64,000 nt of DNA from an uncultured Gemmatimonadales bacterium (GTDB taxonomy: Bacteria > Gemmatimonadota > Gemmatimonadetes > Gemmatimonadales > GWC2-71-9). The notes under the pieces were generated by a model. The model was given only the letters and a program-made list of their open reading frames with translations, did not search any database and was not told the DNA's origin. Positions 17,227 through 51,281 of the stretch are shown piece after piece (positions within the stretch are counted from its first letter, which is position 1; the number at the start of each line of letters is the position of its first letter). The stretch spans positions 32,001 to 96,000 of the forward strand of contig CAWJIM010000003.1 in assembly GCA_963842945.1 (NCBI GenBank). Direction: 5' to 3'. A program made the position numbers and the translations under genes.

Positions 17227-19507
17227 TCAGCGGATTGGCTGCTCCTCTAGACCCACCCGCAGATCGAAGTCTTCACGAGCAAGACCTCGCGTGACTGGGC
17301 CCCCCTGTCGCTCGGGGATGGGCGCCTCACTCCACCCAGCGGCTTCCAGTACCTCCGCGGTTAGCCGGTTCACGGTATCGGCCTGATCCGGCGTTGTCGC
17401 GTTCGCCGCGGCCAGGTCGAGCCAGGCCAGGCGCTTCCGCAAAGGCATACCGTTCCACCGCGGCATCTCCGGCGATTCGGGCAAAGCGATAGGCGAGCGC
17501 CGGCTCGCCTCCCCGGTCGGCATGCCGGGCGATCTCTCGCGCCATCTCGCCACTGCCGGATGAGGCTGTAAGCCGCTCGAGCGCAAGCGCCAGGCTTCGA
17601 TGAACCTCGCCCCTGCGGGCGTCGCTCAGTCCATCGCGCACCACATGGGCAATGACCGGGTGAGCGCAGCGGTAAGAGCCTCCTTCCTCAACCAGAAGGC
17701 GCCGATCAACCAGGGCGTCGGCCACTCCCGCTGCGTGCAGTCGCGAGATGCCGTGCACGTGCGAGAGCACCTCCGAGCGGCACCCCAAACCGGCCACCGC
17801 GACGGTCATGAGGATTTCCCGCAGCTCGTCAGGGAGTCGTTCGATCCGCTCCGCAATGACATCGTGCACGGTCTGAGAGACGGGAAACTCCCTTCCCTGC
17901 TGGCTCATGGCTTGAGGGGAGACAGTCCACTCGCCGGTCTCATCGTCCACCGCGAGCAGGCCCTGGGCGAACATGGTCTTCAGTAGCTCGATGACGTAGA
18001 ACGGGTTACCAGCGGTCACTCCATAGATCCGATTGGCGAACCGCCTGGCACCCGTCGGCGTGCTCACATGCCCCATCTCATGGATCATCCGCCAGAGCTC
18101 TTCCTCCCTCAGTGGCTGAACCGAAATGACAGTGGCGTGAGATTTGGCCCGCAGGACCCGACACAATCGCACCGAGGGTGCATCTCGTTCTACTTCTCCC
18201 GAGTTCAGGGTACCCAGCCAGAGCACCGGGGCTTCTTCGGTCCGCCGAACCAGGTACCGCAGCAGGTCGCAGCTCTCGCCGTCACACCACTGCATGTCAT
18301 CAATCGAAACAACCAGCGGACGCTCCGCTGCCAGGGCGAGAATTACCTGCGCCACGCCCTCGAACAGCCGCCACGCGGAGGAGCTGTCCACCGGCGGCGA
18401 TAGCTCAGGCAGCGAGGGGAACCGCTGCCGCATTTCCGGCTGCAGGCGAGCCACTTCGGCCAGCCACTCGGGGGGCGCACCGGCCAGTCCCGGCGTGCTG
18501 AGCGCATCGCGCAGCATCTCCATGACCGGCTCGTAGGGAATGCCGGGTTTGGCGTCGTAGCCGTGGCCTCGCAAGACACTGCCGGCATTGGCCACGGCCC
18601 AACGGAGAAACTCTTCGGCCAGACGCGATTTGCCGACGCCGGCCTCCCCCTCGAGCAGCACGATCCTGCTCTGGCCTCGTTTCACTTCTTTCCAGGTTTC
18701 CAGCAGCGATCCCCACTCGTTTTCCCGCCCGATCAGCCTGGCTTCGAAGCTGGGTGCCCGGGCATACCACTCATCCGACATGGGACGAGCATTGATGGGA
18801 GAGACATCGGCTTCGACCCGACGAATAAGGTTGAGCAACCCCCGGCTGGGCTCGCACCCGGTCTCCTGGAGCAGAGTTGCTCGGTACTGCTGGTAGCGTC
18901 CGAGCGCGGCGCCCCGGTCGCCGGCCAGATAGCGCGCCTCGATGGCCAGCCGGACCGCGTCGTCGGAGAGCGGATCACCCGCGAGCCAGCGGTCGGCGAT
19001 CGCGATGGCATCGCGCCAGCGCCACTGGCCCATTGCTTCCCGGGTCAGTGTGCTCAGGGCCTCCTGGTATTGATGCATGAGGCCGCGCCGAGTCTCGGCG
19101 GCCCACTCTTCGAATCGTGGAGAATGACGAATGGAAAAACCCGAGAGGAAGCGCGGAATCTCCGTGGTGAGCGCAAGGGCCGGCTCCTGGGCCGCTCGGC
19201 GGCGAAATTCGCACACCTCGCAATCCAGGGGGCCTTCCAGACCTACACTCGCGCGGCTGATGCGGAGCAGCTCGCCGATCTGACCCCGGAGATGTTTCAG
19301 CGCCTGCCGGAGGGACGCCCGCGCCTCGTCATCGGACGACTCTCCCCAGAGGAGTCCGGCCAATTCCTCGCGGGTGTGAAGTCCGGATTCCAGAGCGAGA
19401 TAGGTGAGAAGGGCGAGCGCCTTGGCGCTGGGCTGCGGCACCAGGCGGCCCGTATCGGCGCGGGCGAGTATCGGTGGACCGAGCAGAGTCAGGCAGACGT
19501 CTGCCAC
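17227..19507 (-). CDS. AfsR/SARP-like transcriptional regulator: winged HTH + BTAD + STAND-type ATPase + short TPR tail (frameshift near 17430)
   Basis: LTLLGPP..KALALLTYLAL..TREELAGLLWGE..ARASLRQAL; BTAD DPLSD..GDRGAAL..Y..L..ETGCEPS; Walker A GEAGVGKS; Walker B IDDMQWCD; TAGNPFY. Confidence 0.9.
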
Positions 19508-19569
19508 CGTAATGGTCCTGTGGGGGATGTTACAACCTGGAGAGGAAAACCCGGACCGGCAAGGGGCCT

Positions 19570-19614
19570 TTCACGATCAATTCACGATCGGTCGTCAAAT
19601 TGTGCTACGATTTC
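19570..19614 (+). promoter_or_regulatory. Putative SARP-type operator/promoter of peptide gene 1
   Basis: TTCACGATC at 19570-19578 and 19581-19589 (11-bp period), then TTGTGC-TACGAT-TTC (extended -10-like); RBS AAGGAGG at 19627-19633. Confidence 0.7.
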
Positions 19615-19640
19615 AACACCCGACCCAAGGAGGTCACATC

Positions 19641-19804
19641 ATGTCAGGCAGCGACACCTTCCGGATCACCCTTACCCCGGAGCAGAAGGAACAGGTGCGT
19701 AAGGCTACCGGGAAAGAGGCGAACACCATCGAGTTGACCGTCGAAGAGTTGGAAGAGCGCATCGCGCCGATGACCCTGGGAAGCGGAGAGCGTACCCCAG
19801 CTGA
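19641..19804 (+). CDS. Small putative precursor peptide 1 (about 54 aa; needs one inserted base in the tail to reach TGA 19802-19804)
   Basis: Strong RBS; MSGSDTFRITLTPEQKEQVRKATGKEANTIELTVEELEERIAP followed by MTLG...PS*; 28/37 residues identical to peptide 2 over the leader. Confidence 0.8.
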
Positions 19805-19806
19805 AA

Positions 19807-19851
19807 TTCACGGAACTTTCACGGAAGCCGTGAAGATTGTGCCATCGTTTC
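19807..19851 (+). promoter_or_regulatory. Putative SARP-type operator/promoter of peptide gene 2
   Basis: TTCACGGAA at 19807-19815 and 19818-19826, then TTGTGC-CATCGT-TTC at exactly the same spacing as in front of peptide 1. Confidence 0.7.
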
Positions 19852-19896
19852 GCCACACCAGTCACATCACGCATAAACACCTTGCCGGAGGACATC

Positions 19897-20037
19897 ATGA
19901 AAGACCAGAAGAATCAGTTCCGCATCGAGCTGACCCCGGACCAGAAGAATCAGGTTCGCCACGCAACCGGCAAGGATGCAGAGGCAGTGGAGCTCTCGGT
20001 TGAAGAGTTGGAGGAGAGGATCGCCCCTGCCAGCTGA
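19897..20037 (+). CDS. Small putative precursor peptide 2 (46 aa)
   Basis: RBS GGAGGA; MKDQKNQFRIELTPDQKNQVRHATGKDAEAVELSVEELEERIAPAS*. Confidence 0.85.
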   Translation: MKDQKNQFRIELTPDQKNQVRHATGKDAEAVELSVEELEERIAPAS

Positions 20038-20067
20038 AGCCGCAAGCCGAGTAGCGGTAATCTGGGT

Positions 20068-20136
20068 GGCCCAAGCCAAGGTATCGGCTTGGGCCCCCGC
20101 CGCCGACCGGTCCGGACCTCAACGGGTCCGGACCGG
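20068..20136 (+). terminator. Two GC-rich hairpins after the peptide genes (stabiliser/attenuator; no U-tract)
   Basis: Perfect stems GGCCCAAGCC/GGCTTGGGCC (20068-20095) and CCGGTCCGGACC/GGTCCGGACCGG (20107-20136). Confidence 0.6.
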
Positions 20137-20196
20137 CCGTCTGGTGCATATGGTTTTCACGCTACAGCTTAGAACGTCCTCACAAGTCCCGATCCC

Positions 20197-22137
20197 ATGC
20201 CGGACATCATCAGCTCCCCCGAAAGCTCCATTGAAGAGCTCCGGGATGAGGTAGCCCGCCTTCGGCTGATCCACGCGATCGGCCTCGAGTTCAGCACGTC
20301 GCTGGACTTCGACGAGCTGCTTCCCCGGATCTTCCATCGCGTGCTGGAGGCGCTCGGCGCCGAGGGTGGGTCCCTCTGGATCGCGGAGGATGAAGAGCTC
20401 TGTTGCCGACTGGCCGAGGGGAGAGCGGGCAAGAAGCTGGTCGGCGCCCGGGTGCCGATCGGCACCGGGTTCGTGGGTGACGTGGCCCAGCGGCCCAGGA
20501 CCACGATCGTGACCCGCGCCGTGGAAGACCCGCGCTACCAGCCGGCCCTCGACTCGGGAGAAGCTCTCGCCACTACCGTCATGGCCACGGCCATGGTATC
20601 CGGCGGGGTCACCGTCGGATCGATTCAGGTAGCCAACAAGGTGACCGGCGATGGCATCTTCGATCAGCGCGACCGGGAGCTGCTCGAGGGACTTGCCGCC
20701 AGTGCAGCCGCTGCCCTCCGCAACGCGCAGCTCCACAGCGTCGAAAGCCGGGCTCGGGACCTGGCGGTCCTGCTGGAGATCAGCCGTGAGATCACCGCCA
20801 CGCTCGACCTCGACCGGGTGCTCCGCTCGGTAGTGAATCTCGCGTCTCAGGCGCTGCCGTTCGACCGCGGAGCAGTGGGTCTATATCAGAAGGGTCAGTG
20901 CGAGATCCGCGCGGTGGCAGGACAGGAGAAAGTCGACCAGGATGACCCCAAGCTGCAGGACCTGATAGCCCGGGCGGCGTGGGCGGCAGGTCATGGAGAG
21001 CAGCTCTATCTCTCCGATCGGACCAACACCGCCTCGGATGCCGAGCGGATGTTCGTCTCGATATTCGGCCCAGACCTGGAGTCGGACGGAGTCGAGAGCG
21101 GGCTCTACCTGCCGCTCAAGGATGAAGAGGGAGTCGTCGGGGTTCTGGTCTTCGAGTCGGGCAAGCCTGACCTCGCCACCGAGAGCCAGCTCGAAGTCGC
21201 GGCCATCCTGGCCAACCAGACCACGGTCGCCCTTCGCAACGCCCAGCTCTACCACGAGGTCCCCATGGTGGACGCGCTGGGAGCGCTCGCCGCCAAGAAG
21301 AAGGCACTGTCTTTCCCTGCCCCGCCGCAAACTGCAGCTGTACCTCGCCGTTGCCCTCGCCGTCCTGGCCGCATTGACCCTGTTCCGCTGGCCCCTTCGG
21401 GTGTCCGGCAGCGGGGCCAGTTTCCGGCCGGTCGCCTATGCTCCGGTCCGAGCGCAGGTAGCCGGCGTGGTCGAGCGGCTGCTGGTTAACGAGGGATCCA
21501 CGGTCTCCCGCGGTGCGCCACTCGCGACGCTGCGCGCCACCGACCTCATGGCCGAGCGCGCGACCACGGCCGCAGACCTGGAAGCGGCGGAGCGCTCCGC
21601 CGCGCTGGCAGCGAGCCGGGGCGATCCGGCAGAGCAGCGGATGCAGCAGATCCGCGGTGAATCGCTGCGCCAGGAGCTGGCGTTGCTGGACGAGGAGGTG
21701 GCGCTCACCACGGTTCGAGCACCAACAGCGGGTATGGTACTCACTCCTCATGTCGGCGAGCAGGTCGGCAGCTCGCTCGAGGAAGGTGATCTGCTGCTGA
21801 CGCTTGGGCCGGACCGACACGCTGGAGCTCGAGTTCGGGATCGATCAAAGAGACATCGCCCGGGTGACGCCGGGACAGACGACCCTGCTGCGGGTGGACG
21901 CGCTGCCGCAGCGCACATTCGACGCACGGGTGACCTCGGTCGGCCTGGTTCCACTCGACAGCGGTTCCACGGTGCACTACCCGGTCCGGGCCGTGGTGGC
22001 CAATCCTCAGGGTCTCTTGAAGCCCCAGATGGCGGCATACGCCAGAGTGCTCACCTCACCGCGAGAGCGCGCTCGATCGAGTGCTCCGAGGGCCGAGCCG
22101 GTGGCTCAGGGTAGCGTGGTGGAAGGTGCGTCCATGA
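20197..22137 (+). CDS. GAF-GAF-TM-HlyD membrane fusion protein (frameshifts near 21320, 21808, 22060)
   Basis: Two GAF domains (SLDFDELL...LRNAQLH; TLDLDRVL...LRNAQLY), TM LYLAVALAVLAALTLF, lipoyl halves VRAQVAGVVERLLVNEGSTV and VRAPTAGMV, coiled hairpin, LLKPQMAAYARV; TGA 22137 overlaps the next ATG. Confidence 0.85.
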
Positions 22138-23113
22138 GATATCTCCCTCTCGCTCGCCGGCCTCGTGGCCTGTGGTCAGCAGCCTGCCGCCCGTCCTCCA
22201 GCACAGGGGACGGAAACTGCGTCACTCACCGCGCAGGCGCCGAATGTCGTCTCGGTGGACACGGTAACGCTTCAGGTCCCGCTCAGACTGCCATCGCAAC
22301 TCTACGTGGAGCACGATGCGGCGGTTTTCGCCCGATCCTCGGGCGTGGTCCAGTCCATTCTGGCCGATCTCGGTAGCCGGGTTCGAGCCGGGCAGTTGCT
22401 GGCGCAACTGGAGACCACGGACCAGGAGATTGCGCTGTCTCAGGCGCGGGAAAAGTTCACCAGCGCCCAACAGACAGTCGAGCGGCAGCGGGCATTGAAG
22501 GTGGCGGGCGTCGTCACCCAGGCCGACTCCGAACGGATCGAGAGCGAATATCGCGAGGCAGTCCTGGATCTGCGGAAGGCCGAACGCGATCTCGATCTGA
22601 CTCACATCACCGCACCATTTGCCGGGATGGATCACCGCCCGCTCGGCGCGGATCCACCGGATGGTCAATTCAGGCGACTCGCTGTTTCGGATTACGGCAA
22701 TGAGTCCGTTACTCGCCGCTATTCGGGTACCCGAGGCTTCCGCAGGGGGAATCCGCATCGGAACCTCGGCTGAGGTGGTGGGCCCGAACGGGGTAACCGT
22801 CTCTGCCCGGGTCATTCGAGCGTCGCCCGTGCTGGACGCGGGGAGCGGCACCCGTGAAATCATCCTGCAACTCGGCGAACAGGCCGCCGGCCTCACCCCG
22901 GGGAACAACGTCACCATTCAGCTGGGGGCAACCCGCCGGCAGGTCGTGGTAGTGCCCCGAACGGCGGTCGCGCAGGACGGCTATGCCCTGATCTGGGATA
23001 ATGAGAAGACGATCCTTCGCCCGGTGACCATCGGCGCCGAGCTGGGCGACGGGAGGGTTGAGGTGCTGAGCGGGCTCGCTGCCGGAGAGAAGGTCGTCCG
23101 GAGCGCGCAATGA
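22134..23113 (+). CDS. RND-type periplasmic adaptor (MFP) lipoprotein (frameshifts near 22155 and 22627)
   Basis: Lipobox LVAC; VFARSSGVV..DLGSRVRAGQLLAQL, ITAPFAG, VEVLSGLAAGEKVV. Confidence 0.88.
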
Positions 23114-25162
23114 GCAGCGGCCCCAAGCTTCGCGAAGATCTCGTGCTGGTGGAGCAGACCTACCGCGGGGAGCAGAGCTTCATCGTAAAGGATCCGGAGA
23201 GCCGCAAGTACTTTCGGTTCCGCCCGCTGGAGATCCGGGTGATGCAAGCTCTGGACGGCCAGCACACACCGGCAGCCGCGGCGGACCTGCTCCGGGCCAA
23301 CGGCGTCCCGGTATCCGCAGCCGCGGTGGAGAAGTTCGCCGCCAAGCTGACCGGGATGGGACTCTGCCAGAGGACGCTGGCCGAGCAATCGGTGTTGTTG
23401 ATGGAACGGCTCCGCGCCGAACGTCGCCGGCGGCTGAGTCCGCGAGTGTTTCAGGGCGATCTCTTCCGGATCAGGTGGTCGGTCGGTGATCCGGATGAGT
23501 TGCTGAACCGCTGGTTGCCGCGTCTGCGGTTCTGCTTCTCCCGCACATTCCTCGGCCTCTCGGTTGCGCTGTTCCTGGTCTATTTCGTAATCGTGGGTCT
23601 CAGGTGGTCGGAATTTTCCAGCGCACTGGCTGACCTCTACACGCTCAGAGTGGGCTTCGGGGATCTGGTGGTGCTGTGGGTGACCGGCACCGTCATTATC
23701 GCGATCCACGAGCTGGGTCATGGCTTCACCTGCAAGTATTTCGGCGGCGAAGTGCACGAGATCGGTGCAATGCTGATCTATTTCGAGCCTGCGTTCTTCT
23801 GCAACGTAAATGACGCCTGGACCTTTCCGGAGCTGCGCGCCCGGCTCTGGGTTACCGCCGCCGGTTCCTGGATTCAACTGGTACTCGCCAGCGTCGCGGC
23901 CATCATCTGGTGGGCCGCCAACCCGGGTACCCTGGTGTCGCAGGTGGCGTTTGCCGCGGTTCTCATCGGCGGGCTCACCACGGTCCTGATGAACCTGAAT
24001 CCGCTGATCCCGCTGGATGGCTACTATGCGCTGAGCGACTATCTCGAGGTTCCCAACCTGCGGCAACGCGCCGGACGCCATGTCTCCTGGCTGATCAAAA
24101 CCCGGGTGTTCCGTCTGGATCTGCCGGAACCTCCGGCCGACGAGCGGGAACGGCGCATCTTCCTGATCTATGGCACCCTGGCGGCCGGATACATCACCCT
24201 GATCCTGGCCTTCTGTGCCGTCAACACCTATGGCTGGCTCAGCCGCACACTCGGCAGCATCGGAACCCTGATCTTTGCGGGTATGGTCTTGCTTGCCCTC
24301 CGGCGGCAACTCCTGGCTGTGGAAGGATTCGTTGGCAGCCGTATTTCACAAGCTGACTACCCGGCTGAGATCCGCCCGGGTTCGGTCGCGGCTGCTGGCC
24401 GGTGCCGCCGTGGTGCTCATCCTTGGATGTCTGATCCCCTGGCCAATCACGGTCTCGGGCCCGTTCACGGTCTGGGCTGGGGCATCGCTCCCCCTGACAG
24501 CACCGGACAGTGGGATGGTCGGTCAGGTCAATGTTCGGGAGGGAAGCTGGGTGGAGACAGGGAGCCCGCTGCTTCGGCTTCGCAGCTTCGGCCTGGAGCG
24601 GGAGGCGGTTGTGCTTCGTCGGACGGTCGATTCGCTGTCTCTGGCGATTGCCCGGGCCAGGGCTGCCGACCGGTCCTCGGACGTGGCCCAGATGGAGGCT
24701 CTCCTGTCCGTCGACGCAGCCAGGCTGGGAGGACTCGACGATCAAATCCGCGCTTTCAGCATACGGGCGGTAAGTTCCGGCAGAGTCCTCACCCCGCGGC
24801 CGGAAGAGCTGGCGGGCCGCGGAGTCTCCCGGGGAGAGGTTCTGCTCCGCCTGGGACGAGTGGACAGTCTCGAAGTGCGGATCTCGCTCAGGGGAGCCGG
24901 GGCGAGCTCGGTTGTGTCGGGCCAGCCAGTCAGCCTCCTCCCCAACACCATGGCGGCAGAGGCGCTGACCAGCAGAATCCTTCAGGTATCCACCACCGCC
25001 GAGCCGACCCACTCGCTGGAAGGAAGGGTGCGGTTGGCGGCGCTCGACCCCTGGCGCCCGGGGATGAGCGGCCGGGCCAGAGTCACGCTGCGCCAGTCCA
25101 ACCTCTGGGGCGCCCTCTGGTGGTCCATTCGGCGGGAGATTCGGAGCGATATCCTCCTCTGA
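23110..25162 (+). CDS. PqqD/RRE-like domain + M50 (site-2) zinc metallopeptidase + HlyD fusion (frameshift near 24317)
   Basis: N-terminal PKLREDL..FIVKDPESRKYFRF..ALDGQHT..FAAKLTGMGL (RRE-like winged helix); HELGH, AAGSW, NLNPLIPLDGYY; C-terminal LTAPDSG..VREGSWVETG and WRPGMSGRARV. Confidence 0.88.
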
Positions 25163-25242
25163 GCTGACCGCTTGCGCAGATCATGCCCGTGTTACAACCA
25201 TATAGCATCTCGTTTTCAGGAGCTTGCACCATTCGCCGTGAC

Positions 25243-26072
25243 ATGCTGGCCCTGGTGCGTCAAGCCTTTGATGGGCGCTACCAAGTCGAAAGTGAGATCG
25301 GCCGGGGGGAAACGCGCGCATCTTTCTCGCTCGTGACGCCGAGGGGCGCCCTGTCGCGCTCAAGATCCTGCATCCCGAGCTCCTGGTCAGCGTCGCCGCC
25401 GACCGATTTCTCCGGGAGATCAAGCTCGCTTCTCAGCTCAGCCACCCTCATATCGCGCGGCTGCTGGATTCAGGAGAACGCGACTGGCTGATCTACTACG
25501 TGATGGAGTTCGTGGACGGCCAAACCCTGCGGGAGCGGCTCGACAGCTCGCGGCAACTCTCGATCGTGGAGACCCTCCGGATCGCATCCGATCTGCTGGA
25601 TGCGCTGGATCATGCCCACCGGCAGGGCATCATTCACCGCGACGTCAAACCCGCCAACGTGGTGCTGTCGGCGCGCGGCGCAATACTGCTGGACTTCGGC
25701 ATTGCCCGGGCGGTCATTGCTTCGGGAACCGACCAGCTGACCCGGTCGGGAATTGCCGTCGGGACATCGACCTACATGAGCCCGGAGCAGATCACGGCGG
25801 TGACCGACATCGATCACCGCAGCGACCTGTACTCGGTGGGCTGCGTGCTCTACGAGTGCCTGGCGGGCCAGGCGCCATTCGTCCACCGCAACGAGGCCGT
25901 GGTGCTGCAGCTCCACCTCACTCAGCCGGCTCCGGACGTCCGCACCCTCCGCGGCGACACACCCCCGGAGCTTGCCACCGCAATCGCCAAGGCTATGGCC
26001 AAGGCGCCCAACGATCGCTGGCGCTCGGCGGCCGAGATGCGAGAGACCTTGGCGGCGGTGCCCGTCCCGTAA
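25243..26072 (+). CDS. Stand-alone cytoplasmic Hanks-type Ser/Thr protein kinase (frameshift near 25308)
   Basis: IGRGG, VALK, RFLREI, HRDVKPAN, DFG, YMSPEQ, SDLYSVG; ends right after the kinase domain with no TM. Confidence 0.9.
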
Positions 26073-26157
26073 TCTCGAATCGCAGGTTCCCTCTGCTGGC
26101 CCGCTCCAGTACCCATCTCTATCTTGTAAAGACACTCCCGATTTCCGAGGCATCCCC

Positions 26158-28720
26158 TTGGCCGACTCTGCTCGAACCCTTACGTGCGGCACTCGAAGGG
26201 CGTTATGCCGTTGAGCGGCTGCTCGGGCAGGGTGGGATGGCCACGGTGTACCTGGCCAGAGACTGCCGCCACGATCGCCCGGTGGCCATCAAGGTGCTCC
26301 GTCCGGAGCTCGCGGCCTCCTTAGGGGCAGACCGATTCCTCCGCGAGATCAAGCTCGCCGCCAATCTCCAGCACCCGAACATTCTTGCACTGTACGACTC
26401 GGGGGATGCCGGGGGATTCCTTTATTACGTCATGCCGTTGGTGGAGGGTGAGTCTCTGCGTGCCCGGCTCGACCGGGAAAGCCAGCTCTCGGTCCCGGAT
26501 GCCATTCAACTCACCTGCGAGGTGGCCGAGGCGCTACACTGCGCCCACAGCCGGGGCATCATTCACCGAGATATCAAGCCGGAAAACATCCTGATCCAGG
26601 AAGGGCACGCTCTGGTGGCCGACTTCGGGATCGCCCGGGCGGTGACGGAGGCGGGGGGCGACAAGCTCACCGAGACCGGCATGGCCGTCGGCACACCCCA
26701 CTACATGAGTCCGGAACAGGCGCTCGGCTCGCGCTCACGTGGATGGGCGCAGCGACGAGTACAGTCTGGGTTGCGTGACCTACGAAATGCTGGTAGGCCA
26801 GCCTCCCTTTGACGGGCCCAACGCCATGGCAATTCTGGCCCGCCACTCGATGGAGGGGGTGCCGAGCCTGCGGGTCGTCCGGCATTCCGTTCCCGACGAG
26901 GTCGAGACTGCAATCGGGCGGGCTCTGGAGAAGACGCCGGCCGACCGCTTTCCCACGGTTCGGGAGTTCTCCGATGCTCTGCTGCAGGCGGATCTCGGCC
27001 CGACCGCACGGCGGACCTCACCGCAGGCATTACGGGCAAACCGGAGAAGTACTCCAGTCAAGTCGCCGGCGCTCTCGGCCAAGAGTCCGCGACTCTGGGC
27101 ACTCGCGGCTGCGGTACTGGTGGCGTTGACAGGCACCGGTTGGGGGATCTGGCGCTTCTCGCACCGACCGGTCGCACCGGCATCAGCAACCGGATCCGGC
27201 GGTCTCGACCCTCACCGCATCGCGGTCCTCTATTTCCAGGCGGAAGGCGGTAAGGACTCGCTCGGGTACTTGGCGGATGGTCTCACCGAGGGTCTGATCC
27301 GCCAGCTGGACCAGGTTCCAGGATTGGATGTCATATCCAAGGGAGGAGTTGCGGCCGTACCGAGGCGACAGCGTGTCGCGGGATAGCGTCGCGCGCGCCC
27401 TGCGATGCCGGGACGCTGGTGGCCGGGGGAATCGAGCGGGAGGGTGGCCAGCTCAGGGTGACCGTGCGACTGGTCGACGGATCCAGTGGAGCCGAGTTTG
27501 GCCGGGCTAGCTTTGCCGAGCCCGCTGGTAAGCTGCTGGCAGTTCAGGATTCAGTCAGTCAGAAGGTGGCCGGCCTGATTCGCGAGCGTCTAGGCGAGGA
27601 GATCCGGCTCCGGGAGCAGCGCAATCGAACTCGCAGCGTGGCAGCATGGGCATTGGTCCAAAGAGCCGAGCAGGCGAGAAAGCAGGCCGAAGCCCTGGTG
27701 GAGAAGAATGACACGACCGGAGCCAGCGCCGGCACATTCGAGCGAGCGGATTCGCTTTACGCCCAAGCGCATTTGGCGGATCCGAGCTGGACCGAGCCTC
27801 TGACAGACCGGGCCGGGGTTGCCTACCGGCGCTCGCGCCTGGTCGGGCTGAACGGTGTGGCCGCCAAGCCATGGATCGAAAAGGGCCTGAAGCTCGCCGA
27901 CAGCGCGCTGGCACTCGCGCCGGAGGACCCCGACGGCCTGGAGGTGCGGGGTACACTCCGCTACTGGAAATGGCTGCTCAGGATCGAGGCCGACCCCCAG
28001 GCCGTCGATCAGCTGCTCAACGGTGCGCAGAACGATCTGGAGACCGCCGTCAGAGTGAATCCATCACAGGCGGGCGCCTGGGCGATCCTCAGCCATATGT
28101 ACAGCAACACCAAGAGTGAGACCGACGCGAAGCTGGCTGGCCTGCGCGCCTACGAGGCGGACGCGTATCTCCGAGATGCCCCCCAGGTCCTTAACCGGCT
28201 GTTCACCACCTCCTACGACCTGACTCAGTTCGCGGATGCAGCCCGGTGGTGCGATGAGGGCGCGCGCCGCTTTCCCAGCGATTTCAACTTCACCGGGTGC
28301 AAGCTCTGGATAATGACCACCAGGATCCGAGACCCCGATGTGGCGCTCGCGTGGAAGCTGGCTGATAGCCTCAGGAAGCTAGCCCCCGCGAGCCGGCGGG
28401 AATACGACACCCGGGACGCGAGGATGGCCGTCGCCATGGTGCTTGCCCGGGCCGGGCTAAAGGACAGCGCGCGAGCAGTGGCACTCCGAGCCCGCGGCGG
28501 AACCGACGTGGACCCCAATCAAGATCTCGCATATAGCGAGGTCTATGTACATCTCCTGCGCGGTGATAAGGACCAGGCACTGGAAGCGCTCAAGCGCTAC
28601 CTGGCCGCAAACCCGGAGCGAAGGATTTCTTTGGCGGATACAACCCATACCACCACTAGCTGGTGGTTCCGGGGTCTGGAGGATGATCCGCGGTACAAAG
28701 CGCTGGTCTTCAGTAAGTAA
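26158..28720 (+). CDS. Receptor-like Ser/Thr kinase: kinase-TM-TolB_N-like-TPR (several frameshifts)
   Basis: [67 protein letters not shown]-like helices; ends WWFRGLEDDPRYKALV. Confidence 0.9.
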
Positions 28721-28857
28721 AGGTTGGGGCTAGACAACTCTGGTACTTGTTGCAAATTGGTGTTGGTACACTGACACAAATGACGGATTTGTAACCTGCC
28801 TCCTGTCCTGCCGGCCATGGCCGTTCGGGCGCTGGCTTAAATCGGAGGAACGCCAGG

Positions 28858-30243
28858 ATGCGCCGACTCACCTTTGCTGCCGCCGTCTGCGGCACGCTCG
28901 TCTTTGCCGCCTGTAACGACCAGGCCCCGACCGAGCCAACCCTACCTCGACCCTCGGAAAACTTTGGCTCCTGCCGGGCGACCCCGTTTCCCCTCGCCGG
29001 GGCCAATGGCATCGCACAGCAGATCGTGAACATCTATACCGGAACGTCGAAGGCCCAGTCACTGTTGCGGGCGGAGGCACTGCTGCGGGCCGGGGCAATC
29101 AAACTGTTATGGGATACCTGCCATCCCGATGCCGCCAGGAAGGCCGCCTTTGCCTTCATCGACTGGTTGAATCGCCACACCCCGGCAGGCAAACAAACTC
29201 AGGTTCAAACCCTTATTCTTGCGATACTCAGGGGCATCGGTGAGGTGACTGGTGCACCAGCGGACGGCGACTTCGGAGTAGGATTCTTCGACCCCGCCAA
29301 CACCCAACAACACAGTGATCACAACCGTGAATCACCATGCCCTGCTCGAGCTGGAGCCGGGCTCCTTCCTCGTGCCCACGGAGATCGTGATCAGCCGCAA
29401 GGCAGGTGACCCTGATCTCACCAACTTCGACGGGAACCAGTTTCCACCCACATACGACTACAACGCCATCAATAGCACGAACACCCATGTTCTCCAGCCG
29501 GGCAAGACGGCTAACATAGCGTTCTGTCTCGTGATCATAGGGGGGCCGGAGACGCCGGGTAACGGATATCCTGATCCCGCGAATCTGGCGCATCGGGCAC
29601 AATCCGGTTGTGGGCGCGCCGGGCTTCCCCTTCGAGATCCTCGAGCCGTTCGACCTGGAAGGGACGGAGCTTCGGAACAGCTTGACCTGCCCGGGGATCG
29701 ACGACGTGATCGGTAGCGCCGGCGGCGGGCTGCAGAACTTTGTCAACGCGGCTTTGCATACGGCCGGCCGCTTCCTGCCTACCTCAGCCGCTCTGGGCCG
29801 CCACGCTGGGGACGCTTCCGCCTCCGCCACCCCGGAGTGGTAAGGCAGGTAGCTTGAGCCCGTTCAAGCCGGTGGAGACGAGCTCCAACTCTATCGAGAG
29901 CTTCGGCAGCGACCTAGGCCCAGAAGACGGGAACGTTGTGGATCAGCCGCTCGATGCCTGCGGAGATGGATGCGAACCTACGTACAGGATCGCGGACGGC
30001 GAGGTAGGGATCCCAGGGCCGACCGACTTGACGGCGACGCTGATCCCAGGGGAAGGCTCGACCGGAACACTCAGCGGCACGACGATCCAGTCGACCTCGG
30101 AGACAGCACCCTACACCGCTGTTTTCGATGACCTGACCATATCAGCGCCTGGTACTTATCAGCTTAGGATTAGCTCGCCGGGCGTGGCGTCACACACCAC
30201 AGGAGTCTTCACCGTTAGCCCGGCTCCGCCACCAATCCCCTAG
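28858..30243 (+). CDS. Surface lipoprotein with Ig-like C-terminus (frameshifted)
   Basis: RBS GGAGG; MRRLTFAAAVCGTLVFAAC lipobox; C-terminal AVFDDLTISAPGTYQLRISSPG beta-sandwich pattern. Confidence 0.7.
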
Positions 30244-30263
30244 GTCCCACGGGAGAGCCGTAC

Positions 30264-30305
30264 GCAGCAGGTGGTCGGCATCCGCCGGCCACCTGTTGCT
30301 TTTGT
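30264..30305 (+). terminator. Intrinsic terminator after lipoprotein 1
   Basis: GCAGCAGGTGGTCGGC-ATCC-GCCGGCCACCTGTTGC followed by TTTTGT. Confidence 0.75.
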
Positions 30306-30505
30306 GCGTAATGGCCTAGGTGGTTGTGAGCTTCCAGGCGCAGTCCTGCCTCGGGTAGCGGTGATGGAGTGCTAAGTTCGACGATGGTGCTCACCGCGAC
30401 GTCCCAATTGTGCGGTGTAGATTGAACCGACAAGCTTCTAGTTTCCCGCACCCCGGCGTCGTATTTTTGGGAATAGTTTTCCCCCCGCCATCCTGAGGCA
30501 CTCCC

Positions 30506-33071
30506 GTGGCCGATGTGCTCGAACTGTTGCGTACCGCGCTCGAAGAGCGCTATGCCGTCGAGCGTCTGATCGGCGAAGGTGGCATGGCCACCGTATACCT
30601 CGCCAACGACATCCGGCACGACCGTAAGGTCGCCATCAAGGTCCTCCGCCCGGAGCTTGCCGCCTCCATCGGGGCCGACCGGTTCCTCCGCGAGATCAAG
30701 GTCGCCGCCAAGCTCCAGCACCCCAACATCCTGCCCCTGTACGACTCCGGCGAGGCCTCGGATTTCCTCTATTACGTCATGCCGTTCGTGGAAGGCGAGT
30801 CGCTCCGGGCCCTGATGGAGCGGGAGCAGCAGCTCTCCTTGCCCGACTCCATCCAGCTCACCTGCGACATCGCCGAAGCGCTCCATTACGCCCACACCAC
30901 AAGGTCGTCCACCGCGATATCAAGCCGGAGAACATCCTGCTCCGGGACGGACGACCCTTGGTGGCGGACTTCGGCATCGCGCGGGCAGTGAGCGCAGCAG
31001 GCGAGAAGCTGACCGAAACCGGAATGGCGGTGGGAACCCCGCACTACATGAGCCCGGAGCAGGGCCTCGGCCAGCGAGCACATCGACGGACGCACCGACC
31101 AGTACAGCCTGGCGTGCATGCTCTACGAGATGCTGGTGGGCCAGCCGCCGTTCCACGGGCCTAATGCCATGGCCATCCTGGCGCGGCACTCACTGGAGGC
31201 GGTGCCCAGCCTGCAGGTGGTGCGCAATTCGATTCCCGATGAGGTGGAAGACGCGATCATGCGGGCGCTGGAGAAGACCCCGGCCGATCGATTTCCCACC
31301 GTCCGGGATTTCGCCGATGCGCTCGCCGAGGTGGATCTCGGAAGTGCTGCACGCCGTACCTCCTCCCGCTCGATGCGAGCACGGCGCACTGCTCCCCAAG
31401 GCGTCCGGCGCACCACCGGCAGTGTACGCGCGGAGCCGAAGGGGCTTCCAGCCAAGGTCCTGGCGTTTGCCCGATCTCGGGGCAGGGTGTTCTGGTCAAT
31501 CGTGACCGTCGCGATTCTGGCCGCCCTGGGGCTCTCGGCCTGGTGGGTGTGGCTGCGACCCGGCACGGCCTCGGGCGCGGCTTCCGGTTTCAGTCCCAAT
31601 CGGATCGCGGTGATGTACTTCGACAGCCGCGGCCGCCAGACTCGATCGGGTACCTGGCCGACGGTCTGACTGAGGCGTTGATCCACGAGCTGAGCGAGGT
31701 CAAACCGCTTCAGGTGATTTCCAGAACGGCGTTGCCCCATATCCAATGCCGCTGTCGCACCGGACAGCATCGGGCGGGCGCTTAAAGTCGGAACGTTGGT
31801 CAAGGAAGTGACGCGGTTCGGTGACAGGCTTCGGGTCAGCGTCTCGCTCATCAATGCCGCAACCGGCGAGGAGATCGGCAGCAAGACCCTGGAGCGGCCC
31901 AGGGAAGATCTTCGCACCTGCAGGACGACGTGGCGCGGGAGGTCTCGCTCTTTCTTCGCCAACGCCTGGGAGAGGAGATCAACCTCCAGGAGATCCGGAC
32001 TGGTACCAGAAATCCCAAGGCGTGGGAACTGGTCCAGCAGGCCGGCAAACTGAGCAAGGATCTGACGACACTCCTGATGTCAGGAGAGACCGCTACAGCG
32101 GCGCGGCAACTGGAAGCGGCCGACTCACTGCTGGCCCAAGCCTGGCCGCCGATCCCAAAGGGTGGCGCCGATCGTCATGCGGCCGGGCCGGCCTATCAAC
32201 ACCGCGCCCTGGCGCCCCCTTGACAAGACCTATGTTAAGGCCTGGCTTGAAAAGGCGCTGAACTATGGCGCGCAGGCTCTGGCACTCAAGCCGAACGACG
32301 CGGATGCGCTGGACCTCCGTGGGACTACCCGATATACCCAGTGGTTTCTGAACCTGGCCCCAGGTACTACCGCGGCTGCTAAGCTGGTCGCGGATGCCGA
32401 GCAGGATCTGCGTGCGTCGGTAGCATCGAATCCGAGCCAGGCGCACAGTTGGGCCGTGCTCAGCCACATGCTGATGCAAAAGTCGAACCCGCGGAGGGGA
32501 AGCTCGCAGCGCTTCGGGCCTACGGGCAGACCCGTACCTGACCGAGGCACCGGCGATCTTGTATCGCCTGTTCACCAGTTCGCTGGATCTCCAGACGGAG
32601 TCGAGGCCAATCACTGGTGCGAGGAGGGTCAGCAGCGCTTTCCGACGGACCCGGTTCTCGAGTGTCAGCTTCTCGTTCTGCGCTGCCGGGACAGAAGCCG
32701 GATATCGAGAAGGCTTGGCGGATCGTGGACAAGGATGCAGACTGTATTCGCCCACTGAACGCGACTTTCGCCGACGTGAAGCTCAGCTGTTTGTCGCGAT
32801 GGCATTGGTAAGGGCGGGCCTGCCAGATAGTGCTCGAGCCGTCGCGTTGCGCGCACGGCAGACGCAACGGTTGATCCCGGTCAGAGCTGCTTTACTTCGA
32901 GGCCATGCTCCGCAACATGCTCGGCGATAAAGATGAGGCATTGCGCTTGGTTGGCGTGTATCTCGCCGCGAACCCTCAAGACCGGGCTTCCATGGCCAAA
33001 GACCAAACCTGGTGGTCGGAAGGTTTGCGGACGATCCTCGCTTCAAAGCGCTGGTCGGCAGCGCCAGCTAA
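30506..33071 (+). CDS. Receptor-like Ser/Thr kinase, paralog of 26158-28720 (many frameshifts)
   Basis: [63 protein letters not shown]; ends [13 protein letters not shown] at TAA 33071. Confidence 0.88.
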
Positions 33072-33136
33072 ATCGAGGTCGAAGATATCGGCCGCGGTGG
33101 CAATTCCGTGACCCATTAGTCGGGGTTTTAGCGGTT

Positions 33137-33168
33137 TTCACGCTGGGTTCACGGTAAAGTCCTAGAGT
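33137..33168 (+). promoter_or_regulatory. Third TTCACG-N5-TTCACG direct repeat, upstream of lipoprotein 2
   Basis: TTCACG at 33137-33142 and 33148-33153; TAGAGT 9 nt downstream is -10-like. Confidence 0.55.
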
Positions 33169-33284
33169 TCCGATCGCTTAAGAGTGAACAGCTGATTTGC
33201 GCCTGACGCGCTGTAGGTAGGCTAGGCTTGGCTTGACCTGCTACTTTCCGGGAATCCCGGACCCCCTTAGGACTGGAGAATGAA

Positions 33285-34647
33285 ATGGGTTGGCCCCTGA
33301 GGTATTTGGCGATCGGTGCTGTTGGATTCTTCGTGATCGGCTGTAGCGAGAAAGCTGAGGGTCCTCCCACGGGGCCAAATTTCCATACCGGCATCAGCAT
33401 AACATCGGGCTGCGACGTTGGACACATCAGTCAACTGGCTAACTCTTTCTTCGCACAGCCGCGGCAAGGGGTCGTTAAGAACCTGGTCGATTTATTGGGC
33501 GGCCAGGCCTGATAGTTCGGCCGCCAAGAATACGGGCTTCAACATCATGGCCCAGATCGAGGGAGCTGTGAACGATGCCACGTCTGGCGATCCGGCAGTG
33601 GGATCGAATCTGATGAACCGTCTGCTGCTCTGCATGTACAACCCGGCCCCAGACAAAGAACTGTCGAGCTATCCTGAGTCGTTCCCGGGAGGCTCACCGT
33701 CTCACTTACACCAACGACGGCGGCCCACGGCGCATTCGGACAAAGATCCGGTGGGTCAGTATCTCCGGTCTTCGCGCCCTGTGTCGGCCCCATATACGGC
33801 AATCGCCCCGCCGGCTAACTCGACCTGGCAGAGCATCTCCCAGCTAGTGTACTTCCCCGAAACGACCCTCAACGCGTGGTCTTCTACGGGAGTCCGGCGA
33901 CACCGGCAGACGGCCAGACCTATGACTGGAGAAGCATTCCCACAACGCCAACTTTAATCCGAACATCATCATAGGATTTTGTGTGGACCCGGGGACGCAC
34001 CCAACGAGTATGGTCCTCGAGAAAGACGTAGGGGTTCTGGCGTTTGCGGAGGCGTATTTCTTGACGCCAGGGACCTGCACTGCCGACCTCGCGGCGCTGG
34101 ACGCCAGGAACCCATTCAACTGGCTCATCGCCTGCTTCGTTTCGGAACGGGCCTTCTCGCTCCGCGCCCGCTCATGGCCGCGGTACTGCTGACCGGATCG
34201 GGAGGCACAAAGAGTAAGTGCTGCAGCAAGGTTGGGCCACAGGATGTGCCGAGTGCACCACTGAAGTTCGTGCCCGACCCGCCGTTCGCCAATGTGCAGG
34301 CGGGTAAGTACTTCGCCGTGCAAGTCCAGGCAACAGCCGGAGCCGGAGGAGTGGGAGTCAACGGCGACTGCATCACTCTCAGTGCCGTGAACAATAACGG
34401 GACAAATACAGCCATTATTGGAGCGCACAATTGCAATACGGACCCAACGGCCGGCCCATCTTCGAGAACGACGACCGTGAACAACATCGCCGGGATCGCG
34501 CAATTCTGCGTACAAAATCCAAAGACCGGCACTATCATCCTGGTGGCTACTGGCAACATCGACAATCGACCTGACCAGCTGAGCACCGCCAAGTCGAAGA
34601 AGCTGAACGTGAAGCCCTCGGTGAATGTTGCGAGTTGCACTCCATAG
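33285..34647 (+). CDS. Surface lipoprotein, Cys-rich, distant paralog of 28858-30243 (frameshifted)
   Basis: RBS GGAG; lipobox FVIGC; shares an LxPxPLxAA segment with lipoprotein 1; Ig-like C-terminus. Confidence 0.68.
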
Positions 34648-34664
34648 GGATCGGTGAATTTGTG

Positions 34665-34699
34665 AAAAAGGGCGGCTCTTCCTGGAGCCGCCCTTTTTT
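34665..34699. terminator. Bidirectional intrinsic terminator
   Basis: AAAAAGGGCGGCTC-TTCCTG-GAGCCGCCCTTTTTT between convergent genes. Confidence 0.9.
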
Positions 34700-50596: not shown

Positions 50597-51281
50597 ATGT
50601 CTGATGCCATTCTGCGCTGCCAATCTCTGAGCCGAACCTACCGCTCGGGCAGCCGCGATCTCACTGTGCTGAAGGATATCACCTTCGATGTGTCGCCGGG
50701 CGAATTTCTGGCGATTCTCGGGCCCTCGGGCAGCGGGAAGACGACGCTGCTCGGGCTGCTGGCCGGATTGGACCTGCCCAGCAGCGGCACGGTACATCTC
50801 GACGGGCAGCATCTGGGCTCGATGACCGAGGATGAGCGAGCCAGACTCCGGGTGGAGAAGATCGGTTTTGTCTTTCAGTCCTTTCAGCTGATGCCCACCC
50901 TCACCGCGCAGGAAAACGTGCAGGTCCCGCTCGAGCTAAGGGGTGAATCCGAGGCCCGCAACCGAGCACGCGACCTGTTGAACCGAGTGGGACTGGGTGG
51001 CCGGGAACACCACTATCCGGTCCAGCTATCCGGTGGCGAGCAGCAGAGAGTGGCTCTGGCAAGAGCGTTCAGCACCCGGCCCGAAAATTCTGTTTGCCGA
51101 TGAGCCGACCGGCAACCTGGACGCCAGTACCGGCGCCACCATCATCGAGCTCATGGCCGGGCTGAACAACGATCAGGGGACGACGCTAATCCTGGTCACT
51201 CACGATCTCGAGCTCGCGGCCAGGGCTCGCCGGACCATTCGCCTGGCGGATGGCCGGCTCAGCGGAGACACCGCGGCATGA
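50597..51281 (+). CDS. ABC transporter ATP-binding protein (YbbA-like), frameshift near 51085
   Basis: GPSGSGKT, LSGGEQQR, FADEPTGNLD, VTHD. Confidence 0.93.

Follow-up and report, generated by a model that had tools for sequence, protein, structure and literature searches.

A regulator-peptide-protease-adaptor module in a Gemmatimonadales genome, a candidate for the release of very short unmodified peptides, and its separable kinase-lipoprotein neighbors

The window analyzed here is a 64,000-nucleotide stretch (G000:C3:32001-96000) of the genome of an uncultured soil Gemmatimonadales bacterium, an assembly of 4.3 Mb in 24 contigs that is 86.9% complete; all positions below are those of the window unless another contig is named. 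At 17227 to 34699, between a malate synthase gene on one side and an ornithine carbamoyltransferase gene on the other, lies a gene cluster in which a divergent regulator faces two small peptide genes, followed by three genes with HlyD-type adaptor domains, one of them fused to an M50 site-2 protease, and by three Ser/Thr kinase and two lipoprotein genes. An initial annotation of this DNA had listed the same parts, and every one of them was recovered in place by Pfam and NCBIfam domain calls on the open reading frames (ORFs) of the window and by their translations. Comparison with relatives suggests that the cluster consists of a self-contained peptide module and of a kinase-lipoprotein block that can be separated from it. 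Species-representative genomes were scanned, and from the 157 relatives obtained the comparison retains the 80 best species-level loci; most of these 80 fall into one genus and family, so that counts among them are not independent, and the named organisms are Gemmatimonadales metagenome-assembled genomes (MAGs) without exception. The closest relative, G011, is 90% identical to the window over 8.7 kb. Almost every cluster gene is split between reading frames as assembled, and the intact lengths given below are those found in relatives.

The regulator, here called REG, is encoded on the minus strand (17227 to 19507; about 755 amino acids, 753 in intact relatives; frameshift near 17430) and combines a wHTH and a BTAD domain with a STAND ATPase. 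Pfam recognizes the BTAD domain (43.2 bits against a cutoff of 22.1, E = 6.5e-11) and the ATPase (AAA_16, 96.6 bits, E = 3e-27), and the match to the wHTH domain is weak (Trans_reg_C, 16.6 bits against a cutoff of 26.2). A PDB search with the single REG sequence gave no match; a profile of 13 REG orthologues matched EmbR (2fez, 5.4e-7; query residues 7 to 237, the wHTH-BTAD part) and AfsR (8hvr, 1.6e-5). The succession of wHTH and BTAD domains is that of the SARP family. The TOMM_kin_cyc region 463-909 is matched as well, and no TPR family was detected in the last 300 residues.

Three direct repeats of the form TTCACG-N5-TTCACG accompany the cluster. Box 1 (19570 to 19586, plus strand; TTCACGATCAATTCACG) is located 54 nucleotides (nt) before the ATG of peptide 1 and 63 nt from the REG start on the opposite strand, with a −10-like CAAATT 9 nt past its 3′ repeat; box 2 (19807 to 19823, plus strand; TTCACGGAACTTTCACG) is again an exact match and is followed by the −10-like sequence AAGATT; and box 3 (33137 to 33153, plus strand; TTCACGCTGGGTTCACG) is followed after 9 nt by the −10-like TAGAGT, with the ATG of lipoprotein 2 lying 128 nt downstream. 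The exact repeat occurs in the window at these three positions only (19570, 19807, and 33137), all on the plus strand, which bears out the annotated claim that one repeat precedes both peptide genes and lipoprotein 2. When up to two mismatches are allowed, the window holds seven sites against a shuffle mean of 4.0, which is not significant, and only the exact or one-mismatch form is informative. Across the 4.3-Mb genome there are eight exact copies, with 0.29 expected from base composition; four precede EELEERIAP peptides (the two of the cluster and two orphan peptides elsewhere), three precede ORFs with a lipobox (lipoprotein 2, C21:57709, and C21:285504), and one is unclear. Among related loci, the REG/GAF-HlyD intergenic region carries an exact box in 43 of 58 cases and a box with at most one mismatch in 57 of 58, and exact boxes outside this region are found at orphan peptides (L103, L121), at lipoproteins after kinases (L050, L079, L104), and at a locus end (L087). 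In a fixed-register alignment of 75 box sequences, the hexamers recur with an 11-bp period, and a conserved cAgaTTg comes 9 nt past the 3′ one. According to PMC10936776, SARP promoters carry direct repeats with a spacing of 11 or 22 bp, of which the 3′ one is located about 8 bp from the −10 element, a geometry that the TTCACG boxes share. Judged by its recurrence, the regulon of peptides and lipoproteins is a real, conserved feature, and the comparison supports the annotated view of REG as the SARP-type activator that would bind these boxes at the peptide genes and at lipoprotein 2.

Several further observations concern the boxes. A (T)CACGG-A-GGGCAA element is conserved about 20 nt upstream of box 1 (19550 to 19569 of the window and REG-proximal promoters of related loci) and could represent either a degenerate third repeat at a distance of two helical turns or a piece of REG's own divergent promoter. 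A sequence recurring on the minus strand within the M50-HlyD gene (TCCACGCGTCGTTCACG) was rejected as a box and reflects coding conservation. Elsewhere in the genome, a mini-locus at G000:C19:9873-16500 has an exact box with an orphan precursor (…EELEERIAPSKQSVTPRIGPRGGL) and a lipoprotein gene behind it and a REG paralogue about 4 kb farther along, and it has neither adaptor nor protease genes; the exact box at G000:C21:57709-59000 stands before a small lipobox ORF, with a kinase-1 paralogue (65% identity) immediately behind; at G000:C21:109600 an exact box precedes an orphan precursor ending in EELEERIAPVKAW; and at G000:C21:285504 one precedes a lipobox ORF with Ig-like repeats.

The peptide 1 precursor (19641 to 19804, plus strand) has a 43-residue leader ending in EELEERIAP. 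As assembled, its gene lacks a stop codon near residue 50 and the frame remains open to 20003, so that the tail is unreadable; the probable stop, 19802 to 19804, lies in the adjacent frame. Contigs of three public DNA runs were compared with the window; they come from relatives that are mostly 90 to 95% alike, not from the same strain. In the contig of run X4 only, four extra letters behind position 19775 make the tail read MTIAGKRRAYPS and put the stop codon immediately ahead of box 2; the same tail occurs in relative L079, and that of L104 is MTIAGKRSAYPK. The peptide 2 precursor (19897 to 20054, plus strand; leader MKDQKNQFRIELTPDQKNQVRHATGKDAEAVELSVEELEERIAP) stops at 20037 as assembled and would end in APAS, with the tail AS, and an extra letter behind 20033, present in the relatives' contigs of all three DNA runs, gives the tail ASLKPQAE. 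Between the precursor and processing genes, two GC-rich hairpins with no U tract (20068 to 20137, plus strand) contribute to a predicted RNA fold of 20036 to 20160 with −72.7 kcal/mol (z = −5.8; none of 200 shuffles was as good), and a consensus scan of 19400 to 20300 found neither an intrinsic terminator nor a sigma-70-type promoter. Behind the hairpins stands a single TTCACG hexamer (20156 to 20161; 36 nt upstream of the start codon of GAF-HlyD), which could serve as a half-site or mark a weak promoter that the processing genes have to themselves.

The leader is far more constant than the tail. In an alignment of 73 nonidentical precursors (class A; 16 others, mostly of class B, were excluded), 13 leader positions are invariant, including ELE-RIAP, while the tail varies around a loose x-x-hydrophobic-x-P pattern; within the genus, tails have 3 to 14 residues and are rich in basic residues and proline. 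Class-B precursors retain only …VELGVEELEEKIAP and have tails such as MKF, MKI, and MKLA. The same motif recurs in other families, with three precursors in G166 and a precursor downstream of the protease in G083 and G205. Three genes of G184 (L144, G184:C165, 11400-12200) encode a 17-residue leader, MKxLxLxxEELEQRIAP, and cores of 30 to 45 residues rich in Gly, Ser, Asn, and Pro; this plain leader-core layout argues that the part after AP is the cargo. A short leader followed by a long core was also observed in L143 (G087:C22, about 10277; MRFLRPELEQLEPRVAP), the long cores of L144 and L143 being Gly/Ser/Asn/Pro- or His-rich, and in both loci the M50 gene next to the precursors either lacks its adaptor part or has it split off. 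No Pfam or NCBIfam family covers the peptides.

Downstream of the precursors, all on the plus strand, are three adaptor genes: a GAF-GAF-transmembrane-HlyD protein (20197 to 22150; 646 amino acids in relatives; frameshifts near 21312, 21803, and 22063), an HlyD/RND-type adaptor lipoprotein (22132 to 23113; about 333 amino acids; TIGR01730 on both pieces; frameshifts near 22151 and 22633), and a fusion of an RRE (PqqD-like) domain, an M50 site-2 protease, and an HlyD domain (23110 to 25162; about 684 amino acids; frameshift near 24318). The N-terminal 397 residues of the fusion (23110 to 24300) match NF041824 (daptide_HExxH) over positions 13 to 362 of 379 with an E value of 2e-62; the score of 211.5 bits does not reach the equivalog cutoff of 300 bits, which makes the protein a relative and not a member of the family. 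Its translation contains HELGH and NLNPLIPLDG, and an RRE precedes the M50 core; the PqqD-related match at the N terminus is weak (TIGR04248, E = 0.004), and a PqqD domain is found in 11 to 28% of the members of look-alike clusters. According to hydropathy, several membrane segments separate the N-terminal part of the fusion from its HlyD domain, GAF domains and RRE are cytoplasmic, and the adaptor domains lie outside. The nearest solved PDB chains for the adaptor parts (the C-terminal part of M50-HlyD and the two other adaptors) are MexJ and MacA. A complex prediction of M50 residues 1 to 410 with the precursor scored 0.58 against 0.00 for the best of three controls, with runs agreeing in at least 78% of contacts and a partner pLDDT of at least 58. 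In the benchmark, 116 of 157 solved complexes and 2 of 215 mismatched pairs attained the mark, with only 18 of the 157 and both passing mismatches doing so at scores up to 0.60; since the prediction was built on custom alignments, these counts hold only roughly, and the model lends weak support to a protease-precursor complex.

These genes are inherited together. The M50-HlyD gene is present in 21 of 41 sampled relatives (18 of 24 other genus members) and in 39 of 301 genomes of a phylum-wide sample (15 of 18 in the genus, 30 of 125 in the family, and 5 of 69 in a second family), and it was absent from the sampled genomes of two families (23 and 47). Fragmented genomes give no reliable absences, as in G005, which was counted as a miss although the end of the gene lies at a contig edge. 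Both tallies, like the kinase-1 comparisons below, include the unpublished genomes G003, G089, and G208, on which alone no claim depends. Wherever at least 3.1 kb upstream of M50-HlyD is available, GAF-HlyD and HlyD are there (61/61 loci); wherever at least 6 kb is available, a divergent REG is found (52/52 loci); and a motif peptide occupies the REG/GAF-HlyD intergenic region in 52/58. Regulator, peptides, GAF-HlyD, HlyD, and M50-HlyD thus form an invariant unit across the 80 related loci. No core-modifying enzyme is conserved with the precursors in related loci, where only the protease and the adaptors are, and an unlinked enzyme is possible. No ABC, RND, or MFS transporter and no outer membrane factor was found in 17227 to 34699 or adjoining it, the only ABC/MacB genes of the window lying at 50.6 to 53.8 kb; an unlinked channel is possible.

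The second part of the cluster, also on the plus strand, begins with kinase 1 (25200 to 26072; Pkinase, 1.7e-30; indels near 25185 to 25308), a soluble protein made up of the kinase domain only, which is 74% identical to a 287-residue reference and, at 287 residues in intact relatives, has no membrane segment. Kinase 2 (26150 to 28720; about 855 residues; frameshifts near 26731 and about 27390) is composed of a kinase domain, a membrane segment, and a periplasmic TPR-like domain, and its paralogue kinase 3 (30506 to 33071; frameshifted) is 39% identical to the reference over residues 1 to 730. The annotated description of receptor kinases fits only kinases 2 and 3, with one membrane segment and a large TPR-like outer part each. 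The two lipoprotein genes, both frameshifted, are lipoprotein 1 (28858 to 30243; MRRLTFAAAVCGTLVFAAC...; lipobox FAAC), which belongs to a fast-evolving family following kinase 2 in relatives (619 residues in an intact copy), and lipoprotein 2 (MKWVGPLRYLAIGAVGFFVIGC...; 33281 to 34647; lipobox VIGC), which gave weak, patchy tblastx matches to relatives and is unlike the box-preceded lipoproteins of the closest relatives L079 and L104. The lipoproteins are multidomain proteins of 290 to 625 residues. An AlphaFold model of that of L067 has a mean pLDDT of 49.7 (9-row alignment); VIA-align of this poor model indicated a helical bundle (residues 41 to 126), a ZU5/GAIN-like β-sandwich (Z = 10.5, root mean square deviation 3.2, 126 residues aligned), and an Ig-like domain as in macroglobulin/invasin (Z about 9), and no function was drawn from such common folds in a low-confidence model.

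Kinases accompany the module frequently, and both parts also occur on their own. In 54 of 63 loci, the 500 bp downstream of M50-HlyD include the start of a kinase gene (in the other 9 no kinase follows directly), in 8 divergent loci a kinase-1-like gene abuts REG instead, and kinase 1 is the best-conserved gene of the region (72 to 90% identity). Three genus members nevertheless keep kinase 1 where the module is absent, and two of them also keep kinase 2 and the lipoprotein. G152 (95% complete) has the order malate synthase, MobA/XdhC genes, REG remnant, kinase 1, kinase 2, lipoprotein, and arg genes; G261 (93%) has malate synthase, MobA, XdhC, kinase 1, kinase 2, and lipoprotein; and G008 (96%) has malate synthase, an HAD hydrolase, kinase 1, and arg genes. 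No box or peptide occurs in the three stretches. The remnant in G152 comprises 150 C-terminal REG residues (L145, G152:C11, 10808-11257) beside kinase 1, which indicates that the module was deleted while kinases and lipoprotein stayed intact. Genomes of family f3 that lack the module hold kinase-1-like genes at 56 to 62% identity. Conversely, the stretches covered for L118 and L122 are free of kinases, as are the 10 kb covered for L125, on its downstream side only, and housekeeping genes follow the modules of L122, L124, and L125; among five module copies from other families, G166, G251, and G205 have no kinase in the fetched stretch and G083 and G161 have one about 5 kb away. The neighborhood comparison proposed with the initial annotation thus gives a divided answer: the regulator stays with the peptide-M50 genes, and the kinases and lipoproteins are separable from them.

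The frameshifts of the cluster are most likely assembly errors, as judged by comparison, because indels occur at a similar rate across the window, the genes are intact in relatives, and extra letters of the window are missing from the relatives' contigs. Compared with G011, the breaks are isolated single-base insertions in the window. Net frame-shifting indel clusters against this relative, most of them +1 in the window, number 15 in 8,754 bp within the cluster, 35 in 32,511 bp over five flanking stretches, and a further 4 in 1,445 bp at the 3′ end of REG; the whole assembly seemingly has about 1 frame-shifting indel per kb relative to it. Outside the cluster, an M16 peptidase gene (44766 to 47520) is split by a single-base insertion near 45216 and a MacB-type ABC transporter gene (50597 to 53816) by insertions near 51078 and 51821, and the same fragmentation is seen in other long-contig MAG loci (L079, L102, L111). 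The extra letter at 21803 is absent from the relatives' contigs in three DNA runs of three studies, and those at 22061 and 22151 are absent in two of the three runs. Long-ORF coverage and GC content at third codon positions were too blunt to judge frameshifts. It is therefore improbable that the cluster is an array of decaying pseudogenes with genuine frameshifts: at least 10 uncompensated single-base indels within its genes and the incomplete genome would fit such decay, but housekeeping genes are split too and there is no surplus of substitutions or internal stop codons. RNA run X19 contains contigs 90 to 95% like parts of GAF-HlyD and M50-HlyD, which places a relative in an RNA library and is no proof of transcription.

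The protease relates the module to the daptides, in which, according to PMC10036551 (Ren et al. 2023), the precursor MpaA is accompanied by a site-2 protease (MpaP/DapP) with an N-terminally fused RRE, and the leader motif is ELExMEAP with Pro at −1. Both systems share this fusion, the leader end ELExxxAP (ELExMEAP there, ELEERIAP here) with Pro at −1, and several precursor genes beside the protease. In contrast to daptide clusters, no oxidative decarboxylase, aminotransferase, methyltransferase, or DUF-RRE is found among the cluster ORFs; the tails end in varied residues and not in an invariant C-terminal Thr; the cores have 3 to 14 residues instead of about 20 to 30 hydrophobic ones; the protease carries a C-terminal HlyD domain and stands beside two further adaptors; and the host is Gram-negative. 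The regulatory part resembles AfsK-AfsR-AfsS of Streptomyces, which, according to PMC10936776, has a large SARP (wHTH-BTAD and NOD/STAND ATPase) acting on direct repeats 11 bp apart, the 3′ repeat being about 8 bp from the −10 element; a very small target gene and nearby Ser/Thr kinase genes are likewise common to both. The system here belongs to Gemmatimonadota and not to actinomycetes, its small targets are leader-bearing precursors beside protease and adaptors instead of a sigma-like modulator, and its kinases are separable from the regulator in relatives. The same source reports that AfsR is phosphorylated by AfsK, that this phosphorylation has little effect on AfsR activation, and, in the discussion, that the AfsR inducer is unknown. 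With tripartite efflux and type I secretion (HlyB-HlyD-TolC, MacAB-TolC), the cluster shares HlyD/RND-type periplasmic adaptor domains; it differs in that no transporter or outer membrane factor is present, a protease takes the place of the pump, and there are three different adaptors. The Gram-positive pheromones processed by the M50 protease Eep (SHP/Rgg and enterococcal sex pheromones) are very short unmodified signals that are re-imported and bound by cytoplasmic receptors; they too are yielded by an M50 intramembrane protease, and they differ in lacking an RRE, an adaptor fusion, and a conserved 43-residue leader. The fused M50-HlyD architecture also occurs in look-alike clusters of Pseudomonadota, Acidobacteriota, and Planctomycetota, labeled "hypothetical" or "HlyD family adaptor," and in 49 plasmid records at 24 to 30% identity. 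Alphaproteobacterial plasmids and chromids carry pairs of GAF-like-HlyD and PqqD-M50-HlyD genes, a two-gene core at the same identity, of which those of an Azospirillum thermophilum plasmid (L126) and of the Methylosinus sp. C49 plasmid pMSC49a (L127) were examined; unlike the cluster here, the pairs adjoin giant VCBS/cadherin/LamG proteins, followed in Methylosinus by a prepilin-peptidase-like gene, another adaptor, and TolC, and have no EELEERIAP peptide, SARP regulator, or kinase. The giant proteins of these two loci have no LE-x-R-type motif at their annotated starts.

Taken together, gene content, co-inheritance, conservation of box and leader, and homology to the daptide peptidase favor a cluster of two units, a reading to which we assign a probability of about 0.55. 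The first (17227 to 25162) would be a self-contained module that makes and exports short peptides. REG would bind the TTCACG direct repeats, which have an 11-bp spacing and occupy the place of a −35 element 9 nt ahead of a −10-like hexamer, and would thereby activate the precursors (two in the cluster and two at other sites of the genome) as well as three lipoprotein genes. The PqqD-like N-terminal domain of the membrane protease would dock the leader, a role for which comparison supports the annotated view of the peptides as leader-bearing substrates of an RRE-M50 protease. Cleavage after AP, as in daptide maturation, is the best reading, because ELEERIAP shares the E-L-E-x-x-x-A-P frame with ELExMEAP and the protease is a relative of the daptide peptidase; it would free unmodified tails of 3 to 14 residues. 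These would leave through a periplasmic assembly of three HlyD-type adaptors (protease-fused, bearing cytoplasmic GAF domains, and lipoprotein) that would reach an outer membrane channel encoded elsewhere. The second unit (25200 to 34647), made up of kinase 1, two pairs of kinase and lipoprotein genes, and the box 3 that precedes lipoprotein 2, would be an older neighbor block that persists without the first and not a fixed receptor arm; in this lineage it might have a modulating effect on REG or share its regulation. Several points weigh against this interpretation: all steps of the module rest on comparison; the protease scores below the NF041824 cutoff, and the predicted protease-precursor complex is a weak pass; the daptide-modifying enzymes are absent, so that the cleavage site is transferred by analogy; with no pump or outer membrane channel alongside the cluster, the cut tail might stay in the cell or membrane; tails of 3 to 4 residues such as MKF and MKI are very short compared with any known secreted signal; the 43-residue leader seems conserved far beyond the needs of docking and could itself be the active product; and the compared contigs come from relatives, so that some frameshifts may be genuine in this organism.

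The initial annotation had proposed a closed loop. In terms of the genes found here, the exported tails would be autoinducers, the outer TPR-like domains of kinases 2 and 3 would be their sensors, perhaps with the help of the lipoproteins, and phosphorylation of REG by the kinases would increase precursor transcription. The architecture of these two kinases and the frequent position of a kinase gene just behind M50-HlyD or beside REG fit such a loop; box 3 places lipoprotein 2, the neighbor of kinase 3, in the regulon, and the box at G000:C21:57709 precedes a small lipoprotein and then the kinase-1 paralogue. REG resembles both EmbR, which is a substrate of the kinase PknH, and AfsR, the target of AfsK. 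Yet the genome has about 70 kinase loci, kinases and lipoprotein persist without peptides or adaptors in G152 and G261 (kinase 1 alone in G008, kinase-1-like genes in f3), and several module copies lack a kinase in the stretches described above. Tail distance, moreover, correlates with the export genes (M50-HlyD, 0.50; HlyD, 0.50; GAF-HlyD, 0.47) and with REG (0.39), but not with the sensor domain of kinase 2 (r = −0.05; partial Mantel r = −0.13, p = 0.95), and partial Mantel tests gave no positive signal, although only 18 of the 80 loci had all parts intact and, with the short tails, the power of this comparison is low; and for AfsR itself, phosphorylation had little effect on activation (PMC10936776). 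A loop closed through the kinases is therefore not supported by the comparative evidence as a mechanism and appears unlikely, being a possible lineage-specific add-on. Equally unlikely is a broader version, in which Gram-negative soil bacteria release species-specific signals of 3 to 14 residues without a pump, REG governs precursors and surface lipoproteins, and the adjacent eukaryote-like kinases with their periplasmic TPR domains and the lipoproteins read the peptides and tune REG where they have been kept; it would amount to a kinase-based peptide quorum circuit outside Gram-positive bacteria.

Two other roles for the peptides were considered. Lantibiotic immunity proteins such as NisI are lipoproteins, and lipoprotein genes here share the promoter box of the precursors, as might be expected if tails or longer cores struck competitors and co-regulated lipoproteins protected the producer. 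A conserved leader with a hypervariable core, several precursor paralogues, and a strong hairpin are typical of loci for bacteriocins or for peptides made on ribosomes and modified after translation (RiPPs), and distant members encode Gly/Ser/Asn-rich cores of 30 to 45 residues. The unmodified tails of the genus, however, are shorter than known peptide toxins, the lipoproteins are large multidomain proteins that persist without the module, and their box is confined to few lineages (3 verified among the best 80 related loci), which leaves a bacteriocin-like weapon rather doubtful. It is more doubtful still that the leader is the product, with M50 freeing a 43-residue acidic peptide in the cytoplasm that acts on the STAND sensor part of REG or on the GAF domains and with the tail as only a cap. 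The 13 invariant leader positions beside a variable tail, the cytoplasmic orientation of the GAF domains, and the common switching of STAND regulators by ligands, together with the inducer of AfsR, which PMC10936776 describes as unknown, would suit that role, but in class-B and L144 precursors only about 15 residues at the end of the leader are shared, as expected of a docking motif, and three periplasmic adaptor domains would serve little purpose for a purely cytoplasmic product. Among these alternatives, the two-unit interpretation is retained, in which the core module most likely cuts and releases very short unmodified peptides, as comparison indicates.

The initial annotation knew of no description of such a system, and none of the core module (REG, boxes, precursors, three adaptors, and protease) was found in the searched literature; the TMcin papers, according to their abstracts, concern unrelated membrane bacteriocins of Gram-positive bacteria. 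New here are the genome-wide regulon of peptides and lipoproteins, its SARP promoter geometry, and the independent loss and retention of the kinase-lipoprotein block and the peptide module. Daptides, epipeptides, and pearlins provide known cases of M50 peptidases guided by a leader; the peptidase of the present module is fused to an efflux-type adaptor, has two additional adaptors but no pump beside it, and would act on substrates whose tiny cores are unmodified. The separability of the kinases shows which neighboring genes may be omitted when the system is rebuilt in a host, and the conserved box offers a directly testable regulon for a SARP regulator outside actinomycetes. If the tails are exported, the module would represent a new way for short peptides to cross the Gram-negative envelope and possibly a new class of signals, made of very short peptides, in a soil phylum with few cultivated members.

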